DNA of 43,457 nt from positions 1 to 43,457 of the forward strand of contig JBDGSM010000003.1 in assembly GCA_042217545.1 (NCBI GenBank), read 5' to 3'. The notes beneath the pieces are model-generated. The model saw nothing but the letters and a program-made list of their open reading frames with translations. It ran no database searches and was not told the DNA's origin. The position numbers and the translations under genes were made by a program. Origin of the DNA: Candidatus Nanohalobium sp. (lineage in GTDB: Archaea > Nanohalarchaeota > Nanosalinia > Nanosalinales > Nanosalinaceae). Below, piece by piece: positions 8,195 through 34,188 of this stretch. Position 1 is the first letter of the stretch. Every line of letters begins with the position of its first letter.

Positions 8195-8294
8195 CGAAAA
8201 TCAGAGATTTTCTGGACATACAGAAAATTACGGTGAAATTTTGAACGAAGATTTGAAGAAATCTTCTTGCAGAAAACACGCGAGGCGAGTTTTC
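8195..8294. repeat. Array of four short hairpin repeats in alternating orientation (CGAA..TTCTG / CAGAA..TTCG family)
   Basis: 8195 CGAAAATC-aga-GATTTTCTG; 8221 CAGAAAATT-n7-AATTTTG; 8246 CGAAGATTT-gaag-AAATCTTC; 8270 CAGAAAAC-n11-GTTTTC. Confidence 0.8.
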
Positions 8295-8296
8295 AA

Positions 8297-9082
8297 ATGA
8301 AAGTTATCGGTATAGACGCGGCTACTTGGGACATGATAAAACCTCATAGAGACGAACTTCCAAACTTTGACAGGCTGATGAACGAATGCGATTACAAGAC
8401 TGTGACTGTCGAGGAGACGCCAAAGTCAGCTCCTCTGTGGACTTCGATCTTTACAGGCCTTCGTCAGAGCCAGCACGGCCACAAAGATTTTGTGGTTGAC
8501 GACGATTTACAGAAAAGGGAGGATATAGATGGGGACTTTGTCTGGGAGGTCATGGAGGACATAGATTCCAGGATACTGCAGATTCCTTCGATTATCCCGC
8601 CGATCAACTACAACACAAGTTATGAGCCGGAGGGCTTCGGAGTCTCCAGCGATCTGGAAGAACTGGAGGCCGACAGGAAGAAGCTGATCGAGAAGTCGAA
8701 GGAAGTTCTTGAAGACGATCCCGAGTTCTTCGCTGTCGTCTTCATGCAGCTTGATCGCGTCAGCCATTTCTACTGGGACGATAAGGATCTGATCCTGGAA
8801 TGGTACAGGAAGATGGATGAAGTCCTGGGAGAACTGCTGGAGTACTACGACTTTGACGGCGATGAACCGCTTGTAGTACTTTCAGATCACGGTTTCGCGG
8901 AGTTCGGTGAGGGAAGGATCCAGACGCTGCCAGAGGAGACTCCTCACGGCACTCTTGAGGGCGACCACCACGAGGACGCTGTCCTGATCACGAAAAACGT
9001 TAATTTCGAGATTGAGCAGCCTGAGGACGTCGCGAAATCTATCCTGAATCATTATGGCTACGACGTGGAGGAGTTGTCATAA
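8297..9082 (+). CDS. Alkaline phosphatase superfamily / phosphodiesterase-like protein
   Basis: Start ATG 8297 MKVIGIDAATW, PKSAPLWTSIFTG, LDRVSH, VVLSDHGF, GDHHEDA. Confidence 0.85.
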   Translation: MKVIGIDAATWDMIKPHRDELPNFDRLMNECDYKTVTVEETPKSAPLWTSIFTGLRQSQHGHKDFVVDDDLQKREDIDGDFVWEVMEDIDSRILQIPSIIPPINYNTSYEPEGFGVSSDLEELEADRKKLIEKSKEVLEDDPEFFAVVFMQLDRVSHFYWDDKDLILEWYRKMDEVLGELLEYYDFDGDEPLVVLSDHGFAEFGEGRIQTLPEETPHGTLEGDHHEDAVLITKNVNFEIEQPEDVAKSILNHYGYDVEELS

Positions 9083-9084
9083 TG

Positions 9085-9105
9085 CAGAAAATCTACAGGT
9101 TTTCG
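9085..9105. repeat. Hairpin repeat unit (same family)
   Basis: CAGAAAATC-taca-GGTTTTCG directly after the TAATG at the end of the AlkP gene. Confidence 0.65.
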
Positions 9106-9141
9106 AATTACGGCTATGATCATCCAGAGCACAAGAAAAGG

Positions 9142-9167
9142 ACTTAAGTACTTAGGTGAGTAAGTTA
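9142..9167 (+). promoter_or_regulatory. Promoter/operator of the vapBC-like pair (ACTTA/TAAGT half-sites)
   Basis: ACTTAAGTACTTAGGTGAGTAAGTTA; repeated with one mismatch at 10907-10932 upstream of the paralogous antitoxin. Confidence 0.65.
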
Positions 9168-9172
9168 CTAGT

Positions 9173-9445
9173 ATGGGAGATATCAAGGTTTCGGTTCCGG
9201 ATGAGAAAGAAGAAAAATTCAGGAAAGCTGCTATGAAGGTTTTCGGACACAAGAGAGGCTCTATCAGCAAGGCTGCCACCAAAGCTTTGGATGAGTGGGC
9301 GGAAAGAATGTCTTTTGAGAAGGATTTGAAGATGCCTGAGGATCCTGTAGAATTCCTTGAAGGCAACATGGCTGGAGTTGAGGAGAGTGGTGTTGAACTT
9401 CAGGAACAAGCTAATGAGGTAAGATCAGATGAAGTGTCTAATTGA
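9173..9445 (+). CDS. RHH-type antitoxin (VapB-like)
   Basis: IKVSVPDEKEEKFR...GHKRGSISKAATKAL RHH pattern; overlaps the downstream PIN gene. Confidence 0.8.
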   Translation: MGDIKVSVPDEKEEKFRKAAMKVFGHKRGSISKAATKALDEWAERMSFEKDLKMPEDPVEFLEGNMAGVEESGVELQEQANEVRSDEVSN

Positions 9446-9839
9446 TGCGAACATCTTCCTGGAAGCTCAGCTTGAACAGGGAAAAAGTGAAGTCTGCAGA
9501 GAGTTCCTTGCTGAGGTCAGAGATGGTGACATTGAAGGAGTTTTGACTATGTTTCACGCCGATACTATAGCGGTGATGATGGAGAATAGGGGTTTCCAGG
9601 ACAAGATTTCTGGGTTCATGCTCAGTCTCTACATGTATGAAGGGCTGGACGTATTTACTCTAGAGTTATCAGGGAAGGCTAAAGCTATGATGTCTGATAC
9701 TGGACTAAGTTTCGATGACAGTATAGCCGTTCAGACAATGAAGGAGCTTGAAATAGAAAAAATTGTTTCATACGATGATGACTTTGATGGATTGAAGGAA
9801 AGAACTACTCCTGAAGAAGTCCTAAAAAATACTACGTGA
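9429..9839 (+). CDS. vapC: PIN-domain toxin (VapC family)
   Basis: MKCLIDANIFLE, LSFDDSI, IVSYDDDFD: PIN acidic residues. Confidence 0.9.
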   Translation: MKCLIDANIFLEAQLEQGKSEVCREFLAEVRDGDIEGVLTMFHADTIAVMMENRGFQDKISGFMLSLYMYEGLDVFTLELSGKAKAMMSDTGLSFDDSIAVQTMKELEIEKIVSYDDDFDGLKERTTPEEVLKNTT

Positions 9840-9847
9840 TTATATCT

Positions 9848-10765
9848 ATGCCAGAAGCACCAGTTACACGTGAAGAGATCGAGAACGCGCCTATAAAGGC
9901 AAAAATCAGGGCAGGAGAGGAAGTTGTCAAGCGAGCGCTTGAGGAGTACGACACCGATAACGTCGTCATCGGTTTCACCGGTGGCAAGGACTCCACTCTT
10001 ACGGCCTGGCTCGTGAAGAGGGTCTGCGAGGAGCACGGCTTCGACAAGCCGCGCTTCATGTTCGTGGACCACGGCCAGCACTTTGACGAGCTGGAGGACT
10101 ACGTGGAAAGACTCGCAAGCGACTGGGGATTCGAAGTCCTGGTAGCCAGAAACGATGACCTGATCGAGAAAGCAGATCAGCCCGGAGACATGGTTCCTGT
10201 AGCTGAACTTAACGAGACCAACCAGGAGGAGGCAGCAAGGATCGACGAAGAACTTGAAGAAGTACCATGGCTTATGGATACTGAAGCAGGAAACCACCTC
10301 CTCAAGACCGTGCCGATGAACGAACTCCTGAAAAAAGAAGGTATCGAAGCAGTCATCAACGGAGTTCGCTGGGACGAACACGAATCCAGGGGGGACGAGG
10401 ACTTCTACAGTCCAAGGGACAACCCAGACCACATCAGAGTACACCCGATCCTACAGCTAACAGAAAGAGATGTCTGGGACGTATCCTGGTTCCACATGGT
10501 ACCGGACATCACAGGAATCGACATAGACGAATACCCGGAGAGTCCAGAAGACCTCCCCGAAGGCCTCGCAAAGGATGACGTACCGATCTCGCCAAAGTAC
10601 TGGGCAGGATTCAGAAGTCTGGGATCCGAAGTATCCACGGACAAGAGCGCCGAAGAACCAGCATGGCTCCAGGACGTAGAGAACACGAAGGAAAGAGCTG
10701 GAAGAGCCCAGAACAAGGACGACAAAGAGATTATGGACAAGTTGAGAAAGCTAGGATATATGTGA
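9848..10765 (+). CDS. cysD: Sulfate adenylyltransferase subunit 2 (CysD)-like, PAPS-reductase fold
   Basis: FTGGKDS PP-loop, GVRWDEHESR, RVHPIL, FRSLG, ERAGRAQ...MDKLRKLGYM CysD-type tail; lacks the ECGLH motif and Fe-S cysteines of CysH. Start ATG 9848. Confidence 0.75.
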   Translation: MPEAPVTREEIENAPIKAKIRAGEEVVKRALEEYDTDNVVIGFTGGKDSTLTAWLVKRVCEEHGFDKPRFMFVDHGQHFDELEDYVERLASDWGFEVLVARNDDLIEKADQPGDMVPVAELNETNQEEAARIDEELEEVPWLMDTEAGNHLLKTVPMNELLKKEGIEAVINGVRWDEHESRGDEDFYSPRDNPDHIRVHPILQLTERDVWDVSWFHMVPDITGIDIDEYPESPEDLPEGLAKDDVPISPKYWAGFRSLGSEVSTDKSAEEPAWLQDVENTKERAGRAQNKDDKEIMDKLRKLGYM

Positions 10766-10775
10766 GCTAGTATTA

Positions 10776-10808
10776 AGGCCTGAAAAGGCCTAATCTTTCT
10801 TTATTTTT
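10776..10808 (+). terminator. Putative terminator: AGGCCT-GAAA-AGGCCT hairpin plus T-rich tract
   Basis: Two self-complementary hexamers closing a GAAA loop 10 nt after the cysD stop, followed by AATCTTTCTTTATTTTT. Confidence 0.45.
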
Positions 10809-10937
10809 TAATATCGAGTCTGTTTGTAGTTGTGGCTCAGGCTTTTGAGCTGTCCCATTTCTATTGTCTTGTCTTGGGGTATTGGGCCATCTCTATGTGA
10901 GAGAGAACTTGAGTACTTAGGTGAGTAAGTTAGTTTT

Positions 10938-11210
10938 ATGGGCGGGATCAAGGTTTCGGTTCCGGACGATAAGGAGGAGAAGTTTAGGGAAGCTGCTATG
11001 AAGGTTTTTGGCCACAGAAGAGGTTCTATCAGCAAGGCTGCTGAAAAGGCCTTAACTGAATGGGCGGAAAGAATGAATGATGAAGAGATTAATAAGTCGC
11101 AGGGACTGGGAGATTCCCTTAATGGGAATCTTGCTGATATAGAAAAATCAGGTTTAGAGTTACAGGAAGAGAGAAGGCGATTTCTGGAAGTACCTGGAAG
11201 GAGCTTATGA
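10938..11210 (+). CDS. Second RHH antitoxin paralog, orphan, C-terminus replaced
   Basis: Near-identical N-terminal ~47 aa to 9173..9445; homology ends after LELQE; no PIN gene follows. Confidence 0.75.
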   Translation: MGGIKVSVPDDKEEKFREAAMKVFGHRRGSISKAAEKALTEWAERMNDEEINKSQGLGDSLNGNLADIEKSGLELQEERRRFLEVPGRSL

Positions 11211-11406
11211 CTCCGATGGAGATCTAAGTCAGCCAGCGCCCAGAATCTGCTCGTATGATGCAGAGGAAAAGAAATTTCTGAAGAGGATATTAGACTATCT
11301 GGGCCTTGAAGTCAGTATACAGCAGAATAATGTATACGTCAAAGTCGCTAGTAGCGAAAGTTTCTTTGAGAATGTCAATCTGGTTTACGGGAAGAGAGCG
11401 CCCTGA
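11173..11406 (+). pseudogene. LAGLIDADG homing-endonuclease fragment (no start codon)
   Basis: Frame not in ORF track: EGDFWKYLEGAYDSDGDLSQPAPRICSYDAEEKKFLKRILDYLGLEVSIQQNNVYVKV...; YLEGAYDSDG fits the LAGLIDADG helix; in-frame TAG at 11155. Confidence 0.65.
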
Positions 11407-11475
11407 GGCCTTTCTGTTATCTATATCCTGTTCTACCAATGGAGTATTTAAGGTCCGTGTCCAAGTTTCTTCTCT

Positions 11476-12504
11476 ATGAAACGTTACTTGATCGGTTTGC
11501 TGGCTTTAGTGGTAGTTGCTTCTGGATGTGCGGGTTCTGGTCCGGCCAACAGTGGCTCGGGTGGAGCTGCTTTTTCTTCCATGAGTCCGCAGCAGAAGTA
11601 CAGCCATCTGATCTCTAGTAACCAGGATGCTACTTACCATGTCAGTTACAACATGACTTTTGACATGAATGCTGGGGATAGCAGAATGAGTGGCTTGCTG
11701 GGCATGATCAAGGCAATCTTTGAGAACGCTGATATTGATCTTTACAGCTACAAAGGAGATGTGAAGAGTGTTGTTTCGGTTTCTGCGCTTGGTTCGCAGA
11801 GTGTGACGGCGACATATCCTATCAAGGATTCGAACTACTCGGTTCAATGTTCGGAATCTGCAGGTTCGTCGGATCTTTCGTGCTCCTTCTCACAGTCATC
11901 AGGACTGGGTTCAGGGAACAGCGCGATGAGTACAACACCTTCCCAGGACTTCAGCGACGACCTGGATAAGATCAACCTCAGCTACGAAGGAAAGAAGACG
12001 GTAGCTGGACGTAAATGCGCCAGCTTCTCGGTAAGTATGCCTCCATCTCTCATGAACAGCAGCACTGTCCAGGGAGATGTCACAGGCCATCTATGTGTGG
12101 ATATGGAGAAAGGATTCATGTCCAGGATGGCTATGAACATGTCAATGGAGTCGTCAACAGGATTCGGAAACAACACAACTCCTGCAAACGTGTTCATAGA
12201 GTTCAAGGCCAAAGATTACAGCGAAGACGTCACAGCGTCCGATCTTGAACTGCCTAAGAACATGATCGTAGACCTCAAATGTGATGGAGGCCTTACAGGC
12301 CGTGTCTACTCCAGAGACTTCAGCGGACAGGCAGACCTTGATGTAAACGGAGAGCAGATGCAGAAACAGATCAGTTCCGGACAGATCCAGACATACAACC
12401 TGACACAGTACAGGACAAGCGGAGCCAACAGCCTCAACATCACAGCAGGAGGCGAAACCTACTCTGACAGCTGCTACCACTACGACTTCGGAGGCCTTTC
12501 CTGA
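11476..12504 (+). CDS. Lipoprotein, paralog 1 (DUF4412/LolA-like core)
   Basis: Lipobox VVASGC; TYHVSY, GKKTVAGRKC..F, LCVDMEKG; N-x-S/T sequons. Confidence 0.8.
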   Translation: MKRYLIGLLALVVVASGCAGSGPANSGSGGAAFSSMSPQQKYSHLISSNQDATYHVSYNMTFDMNAGDSRMSGLLGMIKAIFENADIDLYSYKGDVKSVVSVSALGSQSVTATYPIKDSNYSVQCSESAGSSDLSCSFSQSSGLGSGNSAMSTTPSQDFSDDLDKINLSYEGKKTVAGRKCASFSVSMPPSLMNSSTVQGDVTGHLCVDMEKGFMSRMAMNMSMESSTGFGNNTTPANVFIEFKAKDYSEDVTASDLELPKNMIVDLKCDGGLTGRVYSRDFSGQADLDVNGEQMQKQISSGQIQTYNLTQYRTSGANSLNITAGGETYSDSCYHYDFGGLS

Positions 12505-12542
12505 AGAAGAGTCCTGAAGACTTCCTATCTCCCTTCCTTTTT

Positions 12543-13442
12543 TTATTCAAGAAGCTCTCTGGCGCATTCCCTTACTGAATCCGCAGAGTTCCTGCCCGGC
12601 TTCCATCCGGTCGACTTCAGCTTCTCTATCTCAAGCCTCATCTCCGGAACATCGCCGTCCCAGCCTTTCTCCCCGCCCGTGTAAGAGTATTCCGGGTCGA
12701 GACCCATCTCATCACTTACAATATCCGCGATGCCGTCCACATCTATAGAGTCCTCGGAACCTATGTTGAAAGCAGTCCCCGAGGCCTTCCAGGCCTTGAT
12801 TATACCCCTCACAGTGTCATCCACGTGTAGATAGCTCTTCCTCTGCTTCCCGTTGCCGAGGATCGTCAACTCCTCAGGATTATCCTTCAGTTTATGTATG
12901 AAATCGTAGATAACGCCTTTCTGATTCCTGCCGCCGACAATATTTGCCAGGCGGACGATAGTCGCATCTATACCGAAGATCTGCTGATAGACCTGGCACA
13001 TGTGTTCGCCTCCGGCCTTTGTAGCGCCGTACATCGATATAGGATCAAGCAAAGCATCTTCAGGCGTCGGAATCTCCGCGTCCTCGCCATAAACTACGGA
13101 AGAAGAGGTGAAGACTAACTCCTCCACACCTGAACTCTCACAGGCCTCCAGAACATTCTTCGTACCTCTCAGATTCTCTTCGAAATCCTTATCCTGGTCA
13201 TCAGGGAACGTGTTCACCTTGGGATTAGCGGCCAGATGAAAGACAGCATCTACATCTGAAAAAGCATCTTCAAGGCCTTCATAATTCTTTATATCATGTT
13301 CAACCAGCTCTGCATTCTCCGGAACGTTTTCCTCAAGACCTGAGGACATGTTGTCGACAACCTTGACCTCGTGATCCTCGAGCAGTTTTTCCGATAGCCT
13401 TGATCCTATGAAGCCAGCTCCTCCTGTGACCGCGACCTTCAT
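12543..13442 (-). CDS. NAD-dependent sugar epimerase/dehydratase (GalE-like)
   Basis: VTGGAGFIG, FHLAA, TSSSVVYG, YGATK, GNGKQRKSYLHV. Confidence 0.92.
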   Translation of the reverse strand: MKVAVTGGAGFIGSRLSEKLLEDHEVKVVDNMSSGLEENVPENAELVEHDIKNYEGLEDAFSDVDAVFHLAANPKVNTFPDDQDKDFEENLRGTKNVLEACESSGVEELVFTSSSVVYGEDAEIPTPEDALLDPISMYGATKAGGEHMCQVYQQIFGIDATIVRLANIVGGRNQKGVIYDFIHKLKDNPEELTILGNGKQRKSYLHVDDTVRGIIKAWKASGTAFNIGSEDSIDVDGIADIVSDEMGLDPEYSYTGGEKGWDGDVPEMRLEIEKLKSTGWKPGRNSADSVRECARELLE

Positions 13443-13541
13443 ACCTGAAACTTTGTCAGTGGAACTTAAAGGCCTTGCAGCCTTAGATTTTCCCTGGTTT
13501 TAGGGAAAGTTTTTATATCATGTTGAGGTAACCTTTGCGTT

Positions 13542-14501
13542 ATGAGACTTAGCGTTGTACTGCTGGTTTCTCTTGCTTTACTGGCTTCAGGATGTGCTTC
13601 GCTTGGAGGAGGGATGACGACGGAGCAGAAGTTCAAGTCACAGCTCCAGGATATGACACAGTCCAACTACCACGTGAAGTACAAGATCTCTGCGAGCGGC
13701 AAGGCAGGGATCCTTGAGGGAGCGGTTCAGACTCCCGAGATCTACAGCAAGGGGGGCCAGTCCAAGTTCGTGGCAGGTTTCAGCTTCGGCATAGCGAGCG
13801 GTCAGATAGCCGCGTACGACATCTTCAGCGAAAGTCCCGTGATCTGTACTACATCCGGTTCCAGTTATGGGATGGGATCTCAGACCGGGCCACAGTGCAG
13901 CGTCTCCTCGAGCAACGTCTCCTTCTCGAAGGAGAAGATCGACAGATTCATGAAGAACATCTCCCTGGAGATGAAGGGGACGGAGACGGTGGCAGGAAGG
14001 AAATGCAACATGTACGAGATCACCTCCGCAGAGAACCTGACGGACAGGCTACCTGACCAGGCCTCACAGTACGGCCAGGGCAAGGTGAACATCTGTCTCG
14101 ACAGCGGAAAGGGATACCCCGCGATCATCAGCGTCAAGGCGAACCAGACATCGCAGATCAGGGAGTCCGAAGGCCTCACAGAGGTCTTCAGGCTTGAGGT
14201 CAAGGAGTACAACACCGACTTCCCTGACGGCGTCTTCGAGGTCCCTGTCGACGCTGCAGCCAGCCTCTCCTGTGATCCGTTCGAGGCAACGGTCACCACC
14301 TTCGACTACAGCGGACAGATCAAGATCTCCGTCAACGGCGGAGAGAACATGACAAGACAGGTCGAAGCCGACTCCAAGGAGACCTTCAGCCTCGACAGCA
14401 GCAAGAAAGACAGCTTCAGCAACGAGATCACTGTCTACACCGACAGCGGAGAGAGCCACACCGCAAGCTGCTACGGAAGCATCGGAGGCCCGAACTACTG
14501 A
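13542..14501 (+). CDS. Lipoprotein, paralog 2
   Basis: Lipobox LLASGC; NYHVKY, GTETVAGRKCNMY, ICLDSGKGY. Confidence 0.8.
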   Translation: MRLSVVLLVSLALLASGCASLGGGMTTEQKFKSQLQDMTQSNYHVKYKISASGKAGILEGAVQTPEIYSKGGQSKFVAGFSFGIASGQIAAYDIFSESPVICTTSGSSYGMGSQTGPQCSVSSSNVSFSKEKIDRFMKNISLEMKGTETVAGRKCNMYEITSAENLTDRLPDQASQYGQGKVNICLDSGKGYPAIISVKANQTSQIRESEGLTEVFRLEVKEYNTDFPDGVFEVPVDAAASLSCDPFEATVTTFDYSGQIKISVNGGENMTRQVEADSKETFSLDSSKKDSFSNEITVYTDSGESHTASCYGSIGGPNY

Positions 14502-14578
14502 CCACGAAAAATCCTTTTCCTTCCCTCTTTTTTCTTCCACGCACCGATTTTTAACCCTCCGGAACCACAGAGTTCAAC

Positions 14579-15484
14579 GTGAAACACCGAACCCTGGTAA
14601 TCCTCGCCGCGGTACTCCTCGCCTCTGGCTGCGCATCCCAGACACCGCCGGAGGAAAGACTGAAACAGCTCAGCTCGCAGGCCTCCAACGCCACCTACAA
14701 GGTAACTTACGAGATGGAGAGGCCTGGAACATCCGTCATCAGGCAGGGCCTCACGGACCCGGTCCTCTACAGCTATGAAGGAGAGACCATGTTCAGCACC
14801 TCCACGTCCTTCATCGGGGGAAAGGCCCTGATGAACATCTACGAATACACCGAGGGAAAATCAATAACGTGCATCACCAGGAAGATCGCTGGCGCCCCTG
14901 AAAAAAGCTGTCAGATCTCAAACACGACCACAAGCCTGTATACAGAGGCCTCACGGTACGCGGACAAAGCAGACAGCATAAACGTTGCATACCTCGGAGA
15001 AAGGAAGTTCGCGGGAAGAAAATGCGGCATGTTTGGCCTGGGGATACCGGAAAAACAGTTCAAGGCCTCCTCCAGAAACACTGGCGCAAACGTGAAGCTC
15101 TGCGTCGACAAGAAAAAAGGATACGTCGCCTACATCCAGATCAACCTCACCAACCCGATCAGGACAGCGACAGGAAAAATAAACACGATACTCCAGCTGA
15201 AGGCTCTCAACTACTCCTCAAAGGTGAAAAAGAGCAGAATCGAAACTGGAAAAGGCCTCGTAACCTCCACAAGCTGTAACCCTCTCAAAGCCCAGGTTAC
15301 GTCCCTTGGATACAAGGGAAAGTTTAACCTATCCGTCAACGACGCTAATACAACCTACAGCCTGAAGAAGGCGGAGAGCAAGGCCTTTGATCTATCTAAC
15401 TCTTCTATCAACGGTGTGAACGATGTGAAAGCTTTTTATTCCGGCAAAGTTTCGTCTGCTTCCTGTAACGCTACTGCAGGCTAG
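14579..15484 (+). CDS. Lipoprotein, paralog 3 (strongly basic)
   Basis: GTG start; lipobox LLASGC; TYKVTY, GERKFAGRKCGMF, LCVDKKKGY; many Lys and sequons. Confidence 0.8.
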   Translation: MKHRTLVILAAVLLASGCASQTPPEERLKQLSSQASNATYKVTYEMERPGTSVIRQGLTDPVLYSYEGETMFSTSTSFIGGKALMNIYEYTEGKSITCITRKIAGAPEKSCQISNTTTSLYTEASRYADKADSINVAYLGERKFAGRKCGMFGLGIPEKQFKASSRNTGANVKLCVDKKKGYVAYIQINLTNPIRTATGKINTILQLKALNYSSKVKKSRIETGKGLVTSTSCNPLKAQVTSLGYKGKFNLSVNDANTTYSLKKAESKAFDLSNSSINGVNDVKAFYSGKVSSASCNATAG

Positions 15485-15533
15485 GTTGCCCGAGGACGGT
15501 GGTAAATTAAAAGTTCGATGAAAAAGTTCTTAC

Positions 15534-16289
15534 ATGGCAAAGCAGAGGATATCACTTACCCTTGATGAGGACCTTCTGGAGAAGATAGACGCAGAAGTAG
15601 ACCGGAAGGATCTGAACCGTTCCCAGATGATGGATCAGGTGGTCTCGGAGTATCTCTCCTCACAGGGCCTGGATACCGCTGTCGTTTTCTGCGGTGGCGA
15701 AGAAGCGAAATCTATGCAGGTCTACGATGGAAAGCCTGTGCTGAGCCATGTGCTGGATCATCTCTCATCCGAAGGTATCGACCGAATAGTACTTCTCGTA
15801 GGGCCTAACAAGGATGAAATTGAGGGTCATTTCGGCTCCGAGTACCGTGGAAGCGCACTGGAATACATGGAAGAGCAGGAGCCTGAAGGAACAGCCTCTG
15901 CACTGGAGAAAGTGAAGGAAAAGATAGGTAAGACCTTTGTCGCAGTCAACGGACATGTTGTTACGGACGTAGATCTCCAGGACATGCTGAAAGTCCACAG
16001 GGACGAGGGAAACGTCGCCACAATGGCGTTGACGACTGTAGAGAACCCCTCGGATTATGGAGTTGTTAAACTGAAGGGAAGAACGATTCTTGGATTCGAG
16101 AGAAAACCCGATCCCGGAAGAGAGCCTTCAAGACTGATCAACGCCGGAACCTACATCTTCGAGCCCGCAATATTTTCAAAACTGGGCCCTGAAAGCCTTG
16201 AAACAGTATTCGAACATCTTTCATCCGATAAACAGCTATCAGGCTACATTTACGGCGGCAAATGGCAGGACATTAAGGAGAACTGGTAA
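15534..16289 (+). CDS. RHH domain fused to a degenerate sugar-phosphate nucleotidyltransferase domain
   Basis: N-terminal RISLTLDEDLLEKID...NRSQMM (RHH); C-terminal GKPVLSH, EQEPEGTASAL, VNGHV, YGVV, FERKP, INAGTYIF; GxGTR and catalytic GD are missing. Confidence 0.8.
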   Translation: MAKQRISLTLDEDLLEKIDAEVDRKDLNRSQMMDQVVSEYLSSQGLDTAVVFCGGEEAKSMQVYDGKPVLSHVLDHLSSEGIDRIVLLVGPNKDEIEGHFGSEYRGSALEYMEEQEPEGTASALEKVKEKIGKTFVAVNGHVVTDVDLQDMLKVHRDEGNVATMALTTVENPSDYGVVKLKGRTILGFERKPDPGREPSRLINAGTYIFEPAIFSKLGPESLETVFEHLSSDKQLSGYIYGGKWQDIKENW

Positions 16290-16680: not shown

Positions 16681-16731
16681 ATCTCTAGAACCGTGCTTTC
16701 TGGTTAAAAGTCCTACGAAGATTTTTAAGTG

Positions 16732-16762
16732 GTAATACATCGTAATATATTACGGAGTAATA
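16732..16762. promoter_or_regulatory. 14-bp palindrome CGTAATATATTACG with three GTAATA half-sites
   Basis: Palindrome 16741-16754; GTAATA at 16732, 16742, 16757; lies between TTTTTAAG (16722) and ATG 16762 in a divergent intergenic region. Confidence 0.5.
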
Positions 16763-17520: not shown

Positions 17521-17532
17521 GGTACAAATAAG

Positions 17533-18078: not shown

Positions 18079-18079
18079 A

Positions 18080-19018: not shown

Positions 19019-19043
19019 TAAACTTTAACCGGGAATAATCGAC

Positions 19044-19415: not shown

Positions 19416-19419
19416 AAAC

Positions 19420-20463: not shown

Positions 20464-21464
20464 TTACAGATCGTCGTAGTTCTCCTCGAACACTTCAGGC
20501 ACAGATTTCAGCACTCCCAGCGCTATCGGCCCCATGAAGATCCCGGCAGCGCCGAAAACGTAAAGGCCTCCAATCACGCCAATCAGGATCACTACAGGAT
20601 GCAGATCTGATTCACAGTCCACAGGCAGAGGCCTCATGAAGTTGTCAGTAAAGCCGACAATCACTGCACCTCATATCAACAGGAAAACGCCTGCAGAAGG
20701 CCTCCCGTTTAGAAGAAGGTACAGACCTGCCGGACCCCAGACCAGGAAAGCACCTACCAGAGGGATAAACGCCAGCATGATCATGATGAAAGTCCAGAAC
20801 GCATAACTCTGGATACCCACAAGGAAAAGTCCAAGGCCTGCGACAGCACCCTGCGCTATAGCGACGAGTACGTGACCTTTAACCACCGCCCAGGTCGTAT
20901 CGTACGTGTTCTGGTACAGATCTTCCTGTATATCCTGCGGCATCGGCGCAGTCCTCTGGAACCAGTCCTTGAAATCCTTGCCATCCTTCAAAAGATAGAA
21001 CGTGACGAACAGTGATATGGTAAACCCTATAGACACGTTAGCAAGTATATCCAGGATCTTGGAGACGCTTCCAAGCGTATCGCTTACAAAAGTCCTGAAA
21101 ACATGCTCTATCTCTGCGTTAACATCTATATCCCGTCCTGTCCACTCATGTATCTTCTCCTGGATCTGGTCAACCTTCAGCACGTTCGAATTATTGAAAC
21201 TGCCGGCAAGAGTCCTTGCGTCATCAACGACAGCATTAACCACCAGTACAAAAGGCACAACAGCGGCCACCAGAGTAAATATCACGAGAAGGCCTGCGGA
21301 CAGCCTGCTGCCGATCCTGGACCTCAGCTTTTTCTGAGGAGGGTATAAAACAAAAGCAACCATCATAGCTCCCAGAAGGTACGCCAGGAAGGGCTGTAAC
21401 ATCTTCAGCGCCAGGTAAAGAAGCACCACTATTATCGTATAAGAAAGCTCTTCTGAAGGTCCAT
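20464..21464 (-). pseudogene. AI-2E (PerM) family transporter, disrupted
   Basis: ATG 21464 (MDLQKSFL) is out of frame with the main ORF; in-frame TGA at 20671-20673 where LI-W/Y-G is expected, followed by DNFMRP...LHP...GGLYVFG..GIFMGP. Confidence 0.8.
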
Positions 21465-22667: not shown

Positions 22668-22724
22668 ATGTTATGTTCTCAAACAACGGATACCGATTTA
22701 AAAAACAAGGTATAATCTCCGGGT

Positions 22725-23803: not shown

Positions 23804-23806
23804 CTT

Positions 23807-26556: not shown

Positions 26557-26646
26557 GAAAAAAGCCCTGTCGTGGAATCCTTTTAAACACTCCGCCATTA
26601 GAAAGAAAGAGATTATAAAAACTCCCGCCTCAATCCCATTCAAGTC

Positions 26647-29493: not shown

Positions 29494-30632
29494 TCTACCT
29501 CCTGCTATCGCTGGCCCTGGGATTTGCAGTAACCTTCATCGGCGTACCCTTCGCCAAGAAATACCTCCTGGCCTCAGGCATCTACGGAATCGACCAGCAG
29601 AAAAAAGACAAGCCCAAGATACCGACTTCGGGAGGCCTTGTAGTCTTTTTCGGCTTTATAACAACCATAACGTTCTACATGGGCATCCGCTCCCTTTTCG
29701 GAGCACAGAACCTGAATCTCACCCTTCTTCTCGCCGCACTGGCGTCAGTCAACATCATAACGCTGATAGGCCTTATCGACGACATACATATCGATCTCAA
29801 AGCCCTGATACAGGAAGAGATCGATCTTGAGGACGAACCAGAGATAGATATACACGAAAAAATCAACGAAGTACATACACACGGCGAAATAATACTTGAA
29901 ACGCTTTGGAACTTCTTCCCCGGAGAAAGAGACGAAAAAGATACCGAGGAACACAGGAGAGGCCTTGGACAGCTTCCAAAAATGCTCTTCGTACTCCCGG
30001 CAGCATTCCCACTTATTGCGGTTGGCGCAGGAAGCTGGACCATGCACCTGCCACTGATCAACTACACGATCAACTGGGGCCTGATCTATCCATTGATCCT
30101 TCTACCTGCGGCACTGCTCTTCCTTTCCAACGTCATAAACATGCTTGCAGGTACAAACGGACTATCAGCACTCACAAGCCTCGTAGCATCCAGCTCGATC
30201 GCTGTATACGCCTACATCAACCACCAGAAAGAAGCAATGCTCATAGCAGCAGCCCTATCTGTAACACTGCTCGCATTCCTAAAATACAACATGTACCCTG
30301 CCTCGATACTGCCGGGCGACTCCCTGACATACCTCTCCGGAGCAGCAATCTTCTCAGCAGTAGTAATAGGCAACATGGAAAAATTCGGCGTCGTAATCTT
30401 CCTCCCATGGTTCGCAGAGTTCCTCCTGAAACTCAGAAGCGGATTCCAGGCCCGCTCATGGGGAGAACTACAGGAAGACGGAACACTGAAACCACAGCAC
30501 GACAAAATCTACTCGTTAACCCACGTCTTCATGAGAAAAGACCTCAACGAAAAACAGGTAACATATGCCATCGCAGGCCTCGAACTCGTCATCTGCGTCT
30601 CAGCACTCCTGTTCTTCACCCTTGTAATTTAA
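29490..30632 (+). CDS. aglH: UDP-GlcNAc:dolichol-phosphate GlcNAc-1-P transferase (AglH/GPT, MraY-like)
   Basis: ATGA overlap with aglB; KIPTSGG, IGLIDD, NVINMLAGTNGL, YNMYPASILPGDS, YSLTH. Confidence 0.85.
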   Translation: MIYLLLSLALGFAVTFIGVPFAKKYLLASGIYGIDQQKKDKPKIPTSGGLVVFFGFITTITFYMGIRSLFGAQNLNLTLLLAALASVNIITLIGLIDDIHIDLKALIQEEIDLEDEPEIDIHEKINEVHTHGEIILETLWNFFPGERDEKDTEEHRRGLGQLPKMLFVLPAAFPLIAVGAGSWTMHLPLINYTINWGLIYPLILLPAALLFLSNVINMLAGTNGLSALTSLVASSSIAVYAYINHQKEAMLIAAALSVTLLAFLKYNMYPASILPGDSLTYLSGAAIFSAVVIGNMEKFGVVIFLPWFAEFLLKLRSGFQARSWGELQEDGTLKPQHDKIYSLTHVFMRKDLNEKQVTYAIAGLELVICVSALLFFTLVI

Positions 30633-30657
30633 CATCTTTCAGGCCTCAAAACTGAAC

Positions 30658-30864
30658 ATGGGAGAGGAAGTCTTCTACCAGTGCCCTGACTGCGGATACC
30701 GGCAGAGAAGCCAGGCGCAGAAACGCGTGAAATGCCACAGATGCGGCCGCAGCTACCTCAAAAGGGATGCGAAGAAGACCAGGGATAAGAAGGACAAGAT
30801 CGACGAGGAAAAAGGCACAGGCTTCTTCAAATACAGGAAAAAAGGAGACGAAGAATCCGAATAA
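30658..30864 (+). CDS. Small zinc-ribbon protein
   Basis: CPDCG...CHRCG. Confidence 0.75.
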   Translation: MGEEVFYQCPDCGYRQRSQAQKRVKCHRCGRSYLKRDAKKTRDKKDKIDEEKGTGFFKYRKKGDEESE

Positions 30865-30891
30865 AACAGTTCCCGGAGAAAGACCCTTTCT

Positions 30892-31803
30892 ATGGAACAG
30901 TTCAAAATCTCTGTGGAAAACTTCGACCTCGAGGAAACAATGACATGCGGCCAGACATTCGCCTGGCACCGCATCAACGGCGAGCTTTACTCCGATGGAG
31001 CCGAAGATCAAGGATCTTCTGAAGAAGGCGAATCCTCACCGGAATCGCCTGACCCCCATTTCTACACCTTCAAAGATGGAAAGCCGATAGTGGTGGAGGA
31101 GAAAGAAGGCGAGCTACACGTTAAGACAGAGGCCTCCAGAGAAACAGTTGAACAGGTTCTAGGCCTGAACCATGATCTCGAGGAAATCTTCGAGACTTTT
31201 CCCGAAGATGAGAACCTGAAGAAAGCAAAGGAGGAGCTATGGGGCCTGAGGATCGTCCAGGATGACTTCTTCCCCTGTCTGGTATCTTATCTCTGTTCGC
31301 CACAGATGAGGATTCCCAGGATCAAGCAGATGCATAACAGGATCGCGGAGGAGTTCGGGGAAACGGTAGAGTTCGATGAACATAAGTTACTGAGATTCCC
31401 GACGCTGGAGGAGCTGTCGGAGGCCTCGGAGGACGATCTTCGTGACCTCGGAGTAGGTTACCGGGCTAAATACATAGTTGAAAGTATCAAGATCATGCAG
31501 GATGGCTTCAGGCCTGATTTCCCGGAGGATTATGAAGCTTCGAGGGAGAAGATGAAGGAGCTCTACGGAGTTGGGGATAAGGTGGCTGACTGTGTTTTAC
31601 TGTTTTCCCAGGAGCAGCTTGAGGCCTATCCGATTGATACATGGGCGATGAAAGCGATAAAGAGCCAGTACCCGGAGCTTCACAGCGAAGACTATGACGA
31701 GCTCTCCCGGAACATGAGGAGTTACTTCGGCGAGTATTCTGGTTACGCACAGGAATATATCTTTCACGCCGCAAGAAATGGGATAATAGAGGTGGGCGAA
31801 TGA
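30892..31803 (+). CDS. 8-oxoguanine DNA glycosylase (OGG1-type, HhH-GPD)
   Basis: FDLEETMTCGQTFAW, GLRIVQDD, LGVGYRAKY, GVGDKVADCVLLF, YPIDT, GYAQEYIF. Confidence 0.9.
   Translation: MEQFKISVENFDLEETMTCGQTFAWHRINGELYSDGAEDQGSSEEGESSPESPDPHFYTFKDGKPIVVEEKEGELHVKTEASRETVEQVLGLNHDLEEIFETFPEDENLKKAKEELWGLRIVQDDFFPCLVSYLCSPQMRIPRIKQMHNRIAEEFGETVEFDEHKLLRFPTLEELSEASEDDLRDLGVGYRAKYIVESIKIMQDGFRPDFPEDYEASREKMKELYGVGDKVADCVLLFSQEQLEAYPIDTWAMKAIKSQYPELHSEDYDELSRNMRSYFGEYSGYAQEYIFHAARNGIIEVGE
31002..31050. repeat. Two hairpins in-frame inside the glycosylase gene
   Basis: CGAAGATC-aag-GATCTTCTG (31002-31021) and AGGCGAATCC-tcacc-GGAATCGCCT (31026-31050); encode the AEDQGSSEEGESSPESP loop. Confidence 0.6.
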
Positions 31804-31805
31804 AG

Positions 31806-31827
31806 ACGAAAATCAGAGATTTTCTGG
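31806..31827. repeat. Hairpin repeat unit, identical to 8194-8215
   Basis: ACGAAAATCAGAGATTTTCTGG, 22/22 identical to the copy 23.6 kb away. Confidence 0.85.
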
Positions 31828-31855
31828 GACATTCCTCATCTCGAGGTGGAATTCG

Positions 31856-32221
31856 ATGAGAAAGGAGCAGGAAGAGGTAGCCGAGTTCATGGAGGAACAC
31901 GAGCTTGGAGGTACGACCCCGTTCAGACTCCTCGACCTGGTCTCGGAGATCGGCGAATCCGAAGACTCAAAGAGTCTTCTGGTTCAGAGAAAACCTCAGG
32001 TTTTCGGGGTCGCCAGGGACGCGACAAAGAGTTCCGAATACGGTGAGAGGCCTCAGGATCTGGACGTGAAAAAGGATGAGATCGGCGACGTACTTTTCTC
32101 TCTTCTCGCGGTCTCCAACGACCTCGGTATCGACGCGGAAGAGGCCTTTGAAGAGGCGATTGAGAAGTACGAGGACAGGATCGCAGGTGGAGGTGATCCC
32201 GGATCAGGATCACACTCGTAA
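31856..32221 (+). CDS. MazG-like NTP pyrophosphohydrolase with a 17-aa repeat-derived insertion
   Basis: LLDLVSEIGE...VARDATKS..YG, DEIGDVLFSLL, EEAIEKYEDR. Confidence 0.85.
   Translation: MRKEQEEVAEFMEEHELGGTTPFRLLDLVSEIGESEDSKSLLVQRKPQVFGVARDATKSSEYGERPQDLDVKKDEIGDVLFSLLAVSNDLGIDAEEAFEEAIEKYEDRIAGGGDPGSGSHS
31958..32008. repeat. 51-bp in-frame insertion made of two inverted hairpin units
   Basis: CGAAGACTC-aaa-GAGTCTTCTG then CAGAGAAAACC-tca-GGTTTTCG, between the SEIGE and VARDA codons. Confidence 0.8.
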
Positions 32222-32415
32222 GAGACGACCTGGAAGAGGAAGTGGAGAAAGATCTGGACGTGGATGAAGGCCTTATGGTGGATGAGCTTCTTGACCGGGA
32301 AGGGATCGAGAGGCAGGAAGTCCTGGTATCACGTAACGGCACTATCATCTCCGGGAAACACGAACTGGAGAAAGGGGATAAGGTCCGTGTCTTTGATGTT
32401 ATAGCCGGCGGCTAG
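32203..32415 (+). CDS. Ubiquitin-like SAMP/ThiS/MoaD protein, apparent ATC start
   Basis: Not in ORF track. IRITLVRDDLEEEVEKDLDVDEGLMVDELLDREGIERQEVLVSRNGTIISGKHELEKGDKVRVFDVIAGG*; C-terminal GG; SD GGAGGTGA at 32189-32196. Confidence 0.85.
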   Translation: MRITLVRDDLEEEVEKDLDVDEGLMVDELLDREGIERQEVLVSRNGTIISGKHELEKGDKVRVFDVIAGG

Positions 32416-32544
32416 AAAAACAGTTCTGAAAAGCCCTGATCCCGAACTTAGGCCTGTTTAAGATCCTCTGGAGAACTGCCCGTCTGCTTCTTCTGGCAGT
32501 GGATGCTGAAACGCTTTTAATCTTAAAGGATACATTGTTCTACA

Positions 32545-32871
32545 ATGGATTTTCTTGACCTCGAGGGGAAGGAAGACCTGGAGATAATCTTTGATGTCTT
32601 CAACCTGAACGAGTTACAGCGCGACATCTTCAGGGAGCTCGAGGAAAACAAACTCACCGTACAGGAGATCGCAGAAAGAGTTGACAGGAACAGGTCCACT
32701 GCCCAGAGAGCACTTCAGGAAATGATCGACAAAGACATCCTGATGAGAGAAGGCAAGACCGACAAGACAGTCTACTATGTCTACACGACACTACCGGTCT
32801 CAGAACTCAAAGACGTGACCCTGGAAGCTATCGATTCCTGGCACCGCGAAGTACAGAACAAACTGGACTAG
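32545..32871 (+). CDS. Winged-helix transcriptional regulator (TrmB-like)
   Basis: LTVQEIAERVDRNRSTAQRALQEM HTH; YYVY wing. Confidence 0.85.
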   Translation: MDFLDLEGKEDLEIIFDVFNLNELQRDIFRELEENKLTVQEIAERVDRNRSTAQRALQEMIDKDILMREGKTDKTVYYVYTTLPVSELKDVTLEAIDSWHREVQNKLD

Positions 32872-33167
32872 TACTTCCAGAAAAGGAATGCGAAATAAGC
32901 CAGAGCCACTAACTCGCTGAACAATTTCAGCAGCGGCGAAGGCGAAAGGCCTGAAACCGCAAACAAGACACCTACACCTATAAGACCTGTAACAACCTCG
33001 TTAGAACTCTGCATGACATCGCCTATGAAGGCCTCGCTCGTGAAAGTTCCTTCGTAGAAATTCTTGGCTGCAAGGGCTAAAAGGAAATACTTCAGGAAGA
33101 TCGAGGACGCTATCCAGCTGCCCTGAATGACCGCAACAACTGAAGAAGTTATAAGGGATAGAAACAT
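32868..33167 (-). CDS. Small membrane protein
   Basis: Hydrophobic 99-aa ORF just downstream of the PRC-barrel gene on the same strand. Confidence 0.6.
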   Translation of the reverse strand: MFLSLITSSVVAVIQGSWIASSIFLKYFLLALAAKNFYEGTFTSEAFIGDVMQSSNEVVTGLIGVGVLFAVSGLSPSPLLKLFSELVALAYFAFLFWKY

Positions 33168-33180
33168 GGCTCAGAGGCCT

Positions 33181-33453
33181 TTACTCGTTGCCTTCTACCT
33201 CGCTGGTCTGGAAGTCGTTAATGATGATGATGTCGTCAATGCTCTGTACCATTCTGTACGGGATGACGACATTCTTCGAACCTCCGACCTTCTGGGCAAG
33301 ATAGGATCCCTTTTCGGCGCCGACTACTACAGCGCGTGCGGCGAACTTGCCTAGGTTAAGTTCCACGTCTTTTACTTTTCCGCAGTAGGATCCGCTGCTT
33401 GTGAAGACGTCCTTCTCCTTGATGGTGGAGAAATCGAGTATATTTTCGGCCAC
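33181..33453 (-). CDS. PRC-barrel protein (CdpB-like cell-division family)
   Basis: KDVFTSSGSYCGKVKDVELNL...VVIPYRMVQSIDDIIII. Confidence 0.85.
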   Translation of the reverse strand: MAENILDFSTIKEKDVFTSSGSYCGKVKDVELNLGKFAARAVVVGAEKGSYLAQKVGGSKNVVIPYRMVQSIDDIIIINDFQTSEVEGNE

Positions 33454-33553
33454 TTTTTATCACTCTACAACGAGTAATAACCCGCAGAAACTTAAATACC
33501 TTATCCGGATGGACCGTCGGATTTTAAGTCTTTGCAGAGAAATTCTTATCCAG

Positions 33554-33964
33554 ATGAATCTTAGAGAAAGAGTGATCAAAGGCTTCGTCCACACATATAT
33601 TGAGAACGAAGAGAAGATCGTAAAGAACCTTCTCCAGACGGGACGAATGAATGAGGAAGAATGGCAGGGTATCGCCGACAGACTCGGACAAAAAGCCGCC
33701 GACTACCTCCAGGAAGAGATCGCACCAAAGGAATACATCCGGTCCCGAAGTGAGGAGATCACAGAATTCAACAGATCACGTGAAGAAAAAGAGGCAGGCA
33801 TGACAAGCGAAAAAGCCACCAACCTCTACGGCGAAATCAAAGAAAACCAGAGAAAGGCCTTACAGAAAGCATACATAGACTCCAGCATATCCACATTCAC
33901 AGTTCTCGCAAAAACACTTACCGCCCGCTTCAAATACACAGTCACACGACTCAAAAACCTGTAA
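33554..33964 (+). CDS. Hypothetical helical protein
   Basis: Codon usage like neighbours from ATG 33554 (MNLRERV); no recognisable motif. Confidence 0.6.
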   Translation: MNLRERVIKGFVHTYIENEEKIVKNLLQTGRMNEEEWQGIADRLGQKAADYLQEEIAPKEYIRSRSEEITEFNRSREEKEAGMTSEKATNLYGEIKENQRKALQKAYIDSSISTFTVLAKTLTARFKYTVTRLKNL

Positions 33965-34016
33965 ACCAATACAAGGGATTAAAAACAGTTCACCGACCAA
34001 CCCATCGATACACCAA

Positions 34017-34100
34017 GTCGGGGTCGCATAGTCTGGTATTGCGGTAGCTTGCTAAGCTACTGGGCGCAAGCCCACGCGGGTTCAAATCCCGCCCCTGACG
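34017..34100 (+). tRNA. tRNA-Ser(GCT)
   Basis: Acceptor GTCGGGG/CCCTGAC, anticodon arm GTAGC-TTGCTAA-GCTAC, variable arm GGGC-GCAA-GCCC, T arm GCGGG-TTCAAAT-CCCGC, discriminator G; CCA not encoded. Confidence 0.96.
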
Positions 34101-34130
34101 CTTAAAGTTATTCTTGGCCGGAATTTGATT

Positions 34131-34182
34131 AGAGAAGCTCCAGTTCTGCGAGCTTCGGGTTCAAATCCCGCCCCCGACGCTT
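34131..34182 (+). repeat. Hairpin unit abutting a 27-bp duplication of the tRNA 3' end
   Basis: AGAGAAGCTC-n9-GAGCTTCG (34131-34157); CGGGTTCAAATCCCGCCCCCGACGCTT (34156-34182) versus 34077-34103, one mismatch. Confidence 0.85.
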
Positions 34183-34188
34183 TCACTT

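Follow-up and report, generated by a model that had tools for sequence, protein, structure and literature searches.

What are the short hairpins that recur along a 43.5-kb stretch of archaeal DNA, and how do they hold their places in a genome of which about 90% is coding sequence? The stretch, called the window below, is the whole of contig C23 (43,457 nucleotides) of genome G000, an assembly of 1.03 Mb in 82 contigs that is 92% complete. The best named homologues of the OGG DNA glycosylase encoded in the window come from Ca. Nanohalobium sp. (86%), Nanohaloarchaea archaeon SG9, Ca. Nanosalina and Ca. Nanohalovita; as these are nanohaloarchaeal and the sequencing runs containing the DNA are labeled salt lake metagenome, we take the host to be a nanohaloarchaeon (DPANN). 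A preliminary description of the window had listed ten hairpin units and viewed them as non-autonomous mobile palindromes. This view is supported here in that the units belong to a dispersed, structured and insertion-polymorphic family. Taken together, the units probably belong to a family of very small insertion elements, hairpin in form and clade-wide in the Nanohaloarchaeota, that persist where nothing is broken by them.

All ten units are present in the window (Table 1). Seven of them are perfect hairpins with stems of at least 7 bp, and the remaining three (8221, 8270 and 9085) are imperfect or decayed. Two copies that had been reported as identical over 22 nt match exactly (8194-8215 and 31806-31827), and the units at 8195 and 8221, 8246 and 8270, and 31960 and 31985 form inverted pairs, an arrangement that had been claimed. 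Perfect hairpins were counted against dinucleotide shuffles, 200 for the window and ten for the genome. The window holds seven perfect hairpins starting with GAA (shuffle mean 1.04, maximum 4), a number reached in 0/200 shuffles. Genome-wide, GAA-initial hairpins make up 113 of the 989 perfect hairpins, compared to 21.2 on average and at most 30 in the shuffles, so that the copies stand above the shuffled background. GAAA (63) and GAAG (40) are the leading start 4-mers, and the next commonest occurs 23 times. The asymmetric ends are likewise a property of the family: TG after or CA before the hairpin was found for 45/113 GAA-hairpins, compared to counts of 70 and 66 among the 876 other hairpins, and the base preceding the stem is C in 39 of the 45 oriented units. 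A relaxed scan of the genome (526 matches) gave 81 matches with C..T flanks and 62 with A..G flanks, where about 33 each are expected. Relaxed scanning of the genome also gave 45 clusters of at least two units (40 doublets, 4 triplets and 1 quintuplet). The resulting consensus of about 20 nt reads C/GAAR-stem-loop-stem-YTTC/T(GG), with inverted doublets often measuring 50-60 nt. Outside a crude map of open reading frames (ORFs), which covers 90% of G000, lie 62/113 GAA-hairpins (55%) compared to 233/876 other hairpins. Among the Rfam 15 covariance models, tRNA alone reached its gathering score in the window; at E<=1 nothing was returned for 8100-9200, and 30900-34300 gave the tRNA and a sub-threshold IMES-5 match (21 bits, gathering score 96).

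The units come and go between species. The main comparison genome, G001, is a complete genome of a same-genus species with about 76% DNA identity to G000. Where both flanks could be mapped, 23/57 GAA-hairpins are missing at the orthologous G001 site, compared to 20/330 other hairpins (Fisher p = 1e-10). Vice versa, 13/41 GAA-hairpins of G001 are missing in G000, compared to 22/292 others (p = 5e-5). In the window, the G001 gaps match the units exactly, with about 107 nt at 8190-8296 and about 55 nt at 31796-31850, and within genes, in frame, 51 nt each at 31000-31050 (OGG) and 31958-32008 (MazG-like). We compared the window sites with five outgroups (G001, G002, G003, G006 and G007). The OGG insert is missing in 4/4 of these (G001, G003, G006, G007), as is the MazG insert (G001, G002, G003, G007). 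Clean empty sites, which the preliminary description had proposed to look for in close strains, thus occur in the congener and in other outgroups, and orthologous loci often do not carry the same sequence. In the two likely source runs no assembled contig skips a unit; as contigs drop rare variants, they are uninformative on polymorphism. Contigs of relatives from an unrelated salt metagenome (run X3) are without the OGG insert, and one skips 31957-32018, although these matches are weak (below 95% identity).

Chance palindromes produced by the codon usage of an acidic proteome, in which GAA, GAT and GAC are common, would fit the Glu/Asp-rich peptides that several copies encode (EDQGSS, SEDSKS). 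However, dinucleotide shuffles yield 21 hairpins and not 113, 55% of the copies lie in the roughly 10% of the sequence outside ORFs, the flanks are conserved and the indels are clean. The shuffles, the placement and the indels rule out such an origin, to which we give practically no credence.

Part of the copies are organized in a recurrent layout. At 21 places in G000, an ATG led by a Shine-Dalgarno (SD) sequence is followed within 0-6 nt by a hairpin, then by a linker, a second hairpin and the start of the main gene. The first hairpin is usually GAAAATC-NNN-GATTTTC, the short linker is often TGGACATGCA, and the second hairpin holds GAGGTG in its loop or 3' arm, followed by GA-ATG-A. The frame opened by the first ATG, here termed relay frame, is 10-42 codons long and stops on or beside the start of the real gene (ATGA, TAATG or TGAATG); GGTG or GGAGG lies at most 15 nt before the relay start in about 16 of the 21 leaders. 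Exact sites of the first-hairpin sequence GAAAATCNNNGATTTTC (hpA) number 15 in G000, of which ten are in relay frames directly upstream of genes, three are associated with tRNAs and two lie elsewhere. Across copies, the first hairpin is read in all three frames (ENQRFS, KIxDF, RKSKIF), which indicates that the DNA sequence is conserved and not the peptide. At the empty sites of the sister species, the gene's own SD and ATG sit directly on the gene, which indicates that the element brought a second SD and start.

Both relay frames of the window follow this scheme. Relay frame 1 is an insertion of about 107 nt relative to G001; in G001, G003 and G007 the SD and start lie directly on the gene, and G006 has a different relay frame with one hairpin at this locus. 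Its unit 4 contains an SD-like GAGG that would serve the ATG at 8297, and the 5' arm of its unit 2 can alternatively pair with the 3' arm of unit 1 (hairpin 8207-8228; minimum-energy fold). The ATG of relay frame 2 overlaps the OGG stop codon, and its TGA overlaps the ATG of the MazG-like gene at 31856. Units can also be stacked, with four in relay frame 1 and five in contig C39, where two relay frames follow each other. A covariance model of the two-hairpin leader (R1), built from 15 G000 leaders, matches the window at 8184-8251 and 31794-31862. The preliminary description had recognized the hairpins at 8195-8296 and 31807, but overlooked that they form short reading frames predicted to be coupled to the next gene. 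Directly past the stop codon of the gene behind relay frame 1 lies the decayed unit 9085, which is the orthologue of a perfect GAAAATCTTCGATTTTC unit in G001.

Table 1 Coordinates of the hairpin units, the features that contain them and the adjacent genes in the window.
Feature	Coordinates	Strand	Details
Perfect unit	8196-8212		GAAAATC/GATTTTC
Perfect unit	8247-8266		GAAGATTT/AAATCTTC
Perfect unit	31003-31019		GAAGATC/GATCTTC
Perfect unit	31808-31824		GAAAATC/GATTTTC
Perfect unit	31961-31979		GAAGACTC/GAGTCTTC
Perfect unit	31989-32005		GAAAACC/GGTTTTC
Perfect unit	34134-34156		GAAGCTC/GAGCTTC
Relay frame 1	8190..8299	+	ATG 8190 to TGA 8298-8300, overlaps ATG 8297 of the next gene; four hairpin units
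Unit 1, type hpA	8195..8215	+	C-GAAAATC-AGA-GATTTTC-TGG
Unit 2, imperfect, reverse orientation	8221..8247	+	CA-GAAAATT..AATTTTG; 6 bp, outer pair G.G
Unit 3	8246..8269	+	C-GAAGATTT-GAAG-AAATCTTC-TTG
Unit 4, reverse orientation	8270..8296	+	CA-GAAAAC..GAGG..GTTTTC-A; 6-bp GAAAAC/GTTTTC stem, long loop
Phosphodiesterase-family gene, 261 aa	8297..9082	+	type I phosphodiesterase / nucleotide pyrophosphatase, PF01663, E = 1.3e-23
Decayed unit	9085..9105	+	CA-GAAAATC-TACA-GGTTTTC-G, one G.U pair; directly past the stop codon of gene 8297..9082
OGG/HhH-GPD DNA glycosylase gene	30892..31803	+	PF07934, PF00730
OGG in-frame insertion, 51 nt	31000..31050	+	17 codons, AEDQGSSEEGESSPESP; unit 31002-31021 and second, imperfect hairpin 31030-31052
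Relay frame 2	31800..31859	+	MKTKIRDFLGHSSSRGGIR, then stop; hpA unit 31807-31827; about 55 nt missing in G001
MazG-like nucleotide pyrophosphohydrolase gene	31856..32221	+	121 aa; relatives 100-104 aa
MazG in-frame hairpin doublet, 51 nt	31958..32008	+	units 31960-31981 and 31985-32006; 17 codons, SEDSKSLLVQRKPQVFG
tRNA-Ser(GCU)	34017..34101	+	
tRNA-trailer element	34102..34182	+	T-rich spacer, inverted T-arm copy, unit 34131-34158 (GAAGCTC..GAGCTTC), duplicate tRNA 3' end

The genes behind the relay frames are strongly biased. Outside the window, 16 of 18 such genes in G000 serve translation or transcription and 2 are others. Ribosomal proteins account for 11/18 (L4, L23, S3, L24, L5, L1, L10, S7, L13, S9 and S15); a further 5/18 encode SUI1, seryl-tRNA synthetase (SerRS), a part of RNA polymerase B (RpoB), an RNase PH-domain protein, which by our reading is exosome Rrp41/42-like, and Spt4. 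The next gene is the phosphodiesterase-family one for relay frame 1 of the window and the MazG-like one for relay frame 2. In G001, the 13 best R1 matches precede ten ribosomal-protein genes and the genes for elongation factor 2 (EF-2), a part of RNA polymerase A and the proteasome alpha subunit, hence 12/13 translation or transcription genes. Sites occupied in one of the two species only show the same preference, namely L4, SUI1, L1, S7 and the RNase PH-domain gene in G000, and S14, S2, L37e and proteasome alpha in G001. This bias, which includes one-species sites, suggests that insertion or retention favors the starts of translation-apparatus genes.

We therefore have to ask whether the hairpins might be cis-regulatory RNA modules of the translation apparatus, acting by strict coupling or by binding a common RNA-binding regulator, and spread by selection. 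Such a role would account for the translation and transcription genes behind 16/18 G000 and 12/13 G001 leaders, one-species sites included, for the conservation of hpA GAAAATC..GATTTTC across an order, for its fixed place 0-6 nt after the relay start, for the last hairpin holding the SD of the main gene, and for stems being more conserved than loops between species. It is harder to reconcile with the absence of the element from 4/24 same-family and 7/16 other-family genomes, with the 40% of copies that differ between the two congeners, and with units lying in frame inside unrelated enzymes (OGG, MazG-like); nor is there an excess of G.U pairs on the sense strand, and between orthologues there is only one compensatory pair. 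We consider a purely cis-regulatory nature unlikely, yet deserving of attention; it overlaps with a mobile family if mobile units were co-opted.

The folding data bear directly on this question. The leader at 8186-8302 folds with z = -4.45, and the MazG doublet with z = -2.84. The preliminary description had stated that the stems covary. This holds for different copies, between which complementarity is kept; it does not extend to orthologous copies of the two species, whose stem pairs comprise 104 unchanged, 10 one-sided and 18 broken pairs and the single compensatory one. Stem positions of orthologous GAA-hairpins changed in about 11% and loop positions in about 26% of cases, compared to 18% and 19% for other hairpins. 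Among 59 one-mismatch hairpins, 11 were G.T, 18 A.C and 30 other, without strand bias. Structure is thus kept, and the data do not tell whether at the level of RNA or of DNA. Extended palindromes as a general rule were rejected, as flank complementarity averaged 4.70 of 12 positions compared to 4.61 for re-paired flanks.

Copies within genes are in frame and 27 or 51 nt long. The MazG insert was found in 1/96 homologues from a large protein collection, namely in the window protein alone (two other long homologues have N-terminal extensions), and this uniqueness indicates a gain in this lineage. The OGG insert is present at the same site in 21/119 homologues. On a FastTree phylogeny of OGG, for which the insert columns were left out, parsimony requires 13 changes, and well-supported branches force at least five gains or losses. 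The OGG inserts of different lineages encode similar peptides, EDQxSS being GAAGATC..GATCTTC read in frame.

A third set of copies is linked to tRNA genes. Downstream of tRNA-Ser(GCU), the trailer contains an imperfect inverted copy of the 3' half of the T-arm (34116-34128, GGCCGGAATTTGA), the hairpin unit and, at 34156-34182, a 27-nt repeat of the tRNA 3' end (26 of 27 positions shared with 34077-34103), and folds as one long hairpin (z = -2.74). The preliminary description had correctly reported the unit at 34131 and overlooked its place in this structure. Four more G000 tRNA genes (tRNA-Met, tRNA-Ser(UGA) and two tRNA-Arg) have a trailer of this layout, which was also observed in G001 and, among the matches listed, in other nanohaloarchaeal records. 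In addition, hairpin pairs lie directly 5' of tRNA-His, tRNA-Pro and tRNA-Asp in G000, and one unit lies inside a tRNA intron. The duplicated tRNA-Ser 3' end might suggest the attachment site of a provirus; this was rejected, as the window has only two copies, 79 nt apart, and the same short layout after several other tRNAs argues against a large integrated element.

Alternatively, units might be generated on the spot, through template switching or snap-back synthesis where the sequence is rich in GAA/TTC; this would explain why stems differ from copy to copy. The trailer copies contain an inverted copy of the adjacent T-arm and a direct duplicate, a woesearchaeal locus (L137) has a 24-nt direct duplication and an inverted target copy around its unit, the 3' arm of the SD-hairpin in contig C35 pre-exists in the empty G001 site, and the MazG doublet lacks a full-length donor. 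Against this, units identical down to their loops occur at unlinked loci (22/22, 17/17), one consensus extends across an order and beyond, and unit flanks are generally not complementary, as described above. As an account of the family, local copying appears improbable to us, though copies of the tRNA type may have originated in this way.

Other observations concern the tRNA genes themselves. At five G000 sites beside hairpin pairs, a conserved 11-mer (CGAGCGTAACC) is located 5-10 nt upstream of a tRNA gene or tRNA-like start (C6:3780-3790, C17:17112-17122, C37:971-981 and, on the reverse strand, C58:2900-2910 and C35:8205-8215). It is kept in G001 where the hairpins are missing and might be a tRNA leader or promoter element. 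By ARAGORN, many tRNA genes of G000 are interrupted by long introns of 32-137 nt. Overall, few tRNAs were detected; an intron in C54 (e.g. C54:1-160) contains a GAAAATC..GATTTTC unit.

The family extends well beyond the two congeners. In a panel of 41 related genomes (24 of the same family and 16 of other families of the order in the distribution counts), GAAAATCNNNGATTTTC occurs in 32, with 1-15 copies each, and a reversed control pattern in none. The covariance-model scan that the preliminary description had called for likewise finds copies: R1 matches 30/41 genomes, with 30 matches in G000 and 21 in G001. Neither GAAAATCNNNGATTTTC nor R1 was found in four of the same-family genomes, namely G016, G017 and G020 (96-99% complete) and G013 (79%), or in seven of those from other families. 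That near-complete genomes of the same family lack the element indicates that it is dispensable. In a public genome collection, the 21-mer CGAAAATCNNNGATTTTCTGG is, among the matches listed, concentrated in Nanohaloarchaea records, with some Woesearchaeota, and many of the nanohaloarchaeal records listed share the relay or tRNA layouts.

Also among the matches listed are L134, L137, L139, L154 and L179, contigs of metagenome-assembled genomes (MAGs) labeled Woesearchaeota or Methanosarcinales. At these loci, GGAGGCAG precedes CGAAAATCNNNGATTTTCTGG, followed by TCT and a second hairpin. At three of them a T-arm-like GGCAGTTCGAA follows, with no tRNA match at E<=0.05. In L137 (Woesearchaeota), SD, ATG and four codons are repeated as an exact 24-nt direct duplication on either side of the CGAAAATCNNNGATTTTCTGG unit, and an inverted copy of them flanks it as well.

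What, then, moves the units? Short palindromes of this kind are known from bacteria as repetitive extragenic palindromic (REP) elements. Excerpts from the literature describe REP units as imperfect palindromes of 20-40 nt with an asymmetric foot, high copy number and inverted doublets, some of them intragenic (PMC3733652, PMC3116915, PMC2817692), and the REP tag as a conserved GTAG or CGTC tetranucleotide at one end; Rickettsia palindromic elements (RPEs) are mentioned there for the CGTC end (PMC3733652). The preliminary description had likened the window units to REPs and bacterial interspersed mosaic elements (BIMEs) spread by REP-associated tyrosine transposases (RAYTs). No gene for a Y1 HUH transposase (PF01797) was found in G000 at its 92% completeness, nor in 40/41 relatives, including the element-rich G001, G018 and G021, which are complete and in a single contig. 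The sole positive relative, G039, carries ordinary IS200/IS605 copies whose end hairpins are other than GAA. The suggested search for an IS200/RAYT-type tnpA flanked by GAA-hairpins thus found none in G000 or the 41 relatives, the IS200/IS605 elements of G039 being unrelated. Profiles for TnpB-type proteins, reverse transcriptase, Cas1 and DDE_Tnp_1 each scored over the cut-off in 1/5 element-rich genomes, a different genome each time.

A classical REP/BIME system, or one of REP doublets forming hairpins (REPINs), moved by a RAYT/IS200-type HUH tyrosine transposase, would thus have in its favor the short imperfect palindromes, the asymmetric foot, the inverted doublets, the high copy number and the seamless presence or absence of units without regular target duplication. 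That some copies lie in genes would be no obstacle, as excerpts of one source place some bacterial REPs there too (PMC3733652). The missing PF01797, the different end hairpins in G039 and the absence of a GTAG or CGTC tag all speak against such a system, as do the many copies that are not extragenic. In a REPIN, both halves pair with each other; the hairpins of the doublets described here have different stems, hence do not pair in this way. This explanation, which we rate as very improbable, is largely refuted by our analysis, and the proposed RAYT mechanism did not hold up. From the profile searches, the mover of the units does not appear to be a RAYT/IS200-type enzyme encoded in these genomes.

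How might such units persist? We propose that copies are gained, and probably also precisely lost, at defined sites, and that, coding sequence making up about 90% of the genome, those copies persist that break nothing, in three kinds of place. Behind a start codon (0-6 nt), the old SD and ATG would open a relay frame that is translated through the hairpins and ends on or beside a new start, the last hairpin supplying the new SD (GAGGTG). As the relay stop falls on the new start and the SD is borne by a hairpin, the downstream gene would be expressed by translational coupling. Within genes, copies of 27 or 51 nt would be tolerated in frame. The third kind of place is tRNA leaders, trailers and one intron; trailer copies come with a duplicate tRNA end, which leaves the tRNA gene intact. 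Bringing an SD and a start together with a short read-through frame, the relay would let the element sit behind the starts of ribosomal-protein or otherwise highly expressed genes and beside tRNAs. More tentatively, and with somewhat less confidence than doubt, we suggest that an orphan archaeal mobile hairpin of about 20 nt without a recognizable transposase has evolved a self-contained translation relay, and that it was possibly co-opted for the coupled expression of the translation apparatus in ultra-small symbionts.

Several points weigh against a family of mobile hairpin elements with this mode of life. No mobilizing enzyme was found for the units among the Y1, TnpB-type, reverse transcriptase, Cas1 and DDE_Tnp_1 types searched. 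Gene-start and in-frame sites lack a consistent target duplication: values range from -5 to 8 nt, and the ATG end of the element itself is included in the 7-8 nt cases. Duplications of 8 to 27 nt accompany tRNA-linked copies and one gene-end copy, and one mechanism does not obviously explain both patterns. A full-length, near-identical donor for the 51-nt MazG doublet was not found. Only single units recur elsewhere (17/17 in contig C51, 22/22 within the window), which suggests that single units move or that copies diverge fast. The likeness of the OGG peptides makes a single ancient gain, followed by many precise losses, just as probable as several gains. A purely selfish element would not be expected to show the strong bias to ribosomal-protein genes. 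Finally, that relay frames are translated and couple the expression of the downstream gene is something we infer.

Comparison with known systems places the family close to, and apart from, several of them. The likeness to REP, BIME and REPIN elements lies in short imperfect palindromes at high copy number (113 perfect ones in 1.03 Mb), the asymmetric foot, inverted doublets and seamless presence or absence. The differences are the archaeal (DPANN) host, the tag C/GAAR..YTTC/T(G), the missing RAYT/Y1 gene and doublet hairpins that do not pair; moreover, REPs are mostly extragenic and downstream of genes, whereas the nanohaloarchaeal units lie behind start codons in relay frames. RPEs are orphan palindromic repeats of about 100-150 bp in a reduced bacterial symbiont genome, lying in frame in protein genes and adding a peptide segment, for which we know of no transposase. 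The OGG and MazG-like inserts resemble them in their way of working, as palindromic repeats inserted in frame in conserved protein genes. However, the nanohaloarchaeal units are about 20 nt long, the doublets 51 nt, and most sit at start codons or tRNAs and not in mid-gene; to our knowledge, nothing in RPEs corresponds to a relay frame that has an SD and start of its own. This is a comparison with the general description of RPEs and not with their sequences, and host (archaeal here) and unit length differ. With miniature inverted-repeat transposable elements, or MITEs, the units share being small, non-autonomous, structured and insertion-polymorphic; they differ in having neither terminal inverted repeats matching a parent insertion sequence, nor a fixed-length target duplication, nor a shared DDE transposase (1/5 genomes).

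Two further systems resemble the family in how they work. In bacterial ribosomal-protein operons, translation is coupled through SD-sequestering intercistronic hairpins and stop-start overlap (ATGA). The relays share the intercistronic structure around the downstream SD, the ATGA overlap and the location in ribosomal-protein operons, but consist of a separate, interposed short frame, and the module is dispersed and comes and goes between species. The 'peel and paste' transposition of IS200/IS605 elements would likewise combine strand-specific recognition of a bulged hairpin foot with seamless indels, precise excision, reuse of sites and no target duplication; in contrast to these elements, the units are about 20 nt long without cargo, no TnpA was found, and a TnpB-like protein scored over the cut-off in 1/5 element-rich genomes. 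A search of the literature on palindromic, MITE or REP repeats in nanohaloarchaea, DPANN and archaea found no description of these elements (supplementary files excluded). As far as this search shows, neither the design of the relay frames nor the preference for ribosomal-protein operons and tRNAs has been described before.

The remaining content of the window is that of an ordinary archaeal chromosome, with glycosylation genes, AglB/STT3, SecD/F and NAC. Beyond the ten units, a GAAGGCC..GGTCTTC hairpin with 9 pairs, including G.U, lies at 14169-14189 inside ORF 13542-14501. At C67:11660-11830 of G000 (reverse strand), a gene has a hairpin doublet at its 3' end, flanked by a direct duplication of about 20 nt (GAGACACTGGAGGCCTGA) consisting of the gene's last codons and stop codon. 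An AI-2E family transporter at 20464-21429 (- strand) is split into adjacent ORFs of 252 and 66 aa, which correspond to successive stretches of the Pfam profile, so that a frameshift or pseudogene is possible. At 15534-16289, a single ORF fuses a ribbon-helix-helix (CopG) domain to a nucleotidyl transferase domain, an unusual combination. A VapBC-like small gene pair (9173-9839), composed of a 90-aa ORF and a PIN-domain protein, has no counterpart at this locus in G001, G003, G006 and G007, whose orthologous flanking genes are separated by 40-90 nt; the first 170 nt of this region (9139-9310) recur with 82% identity at 10904-11075, ahead of a second 90-aa ORF.

Small palindromic mobile repeats such as REP, RPE and MITE are known from bacteria, and a family of this kind in DPANN is apparently undescribed. 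Three testable distinctions set it apart: the lack of an HUH enzyme, the built-in relay frame and the preference for ribosomal-protein operons and tRNA genes. For annotation, this means that the element is the source of short frames and of 17-codon inserts in nanohaloarchaeal genes, and that gene starts are easily mis-called. The units are also usable as strain-level markers for uncultivated symbionts. The family raises the mechanistic question of which activity moves hairpins of 20 nt seamlessly when the genome, at 1 Mb, has almost no transposases. If it is true that the relays tune the stoichiometry of ribosomal proteins, they would represent a new way of organizing operon expression in archaea.

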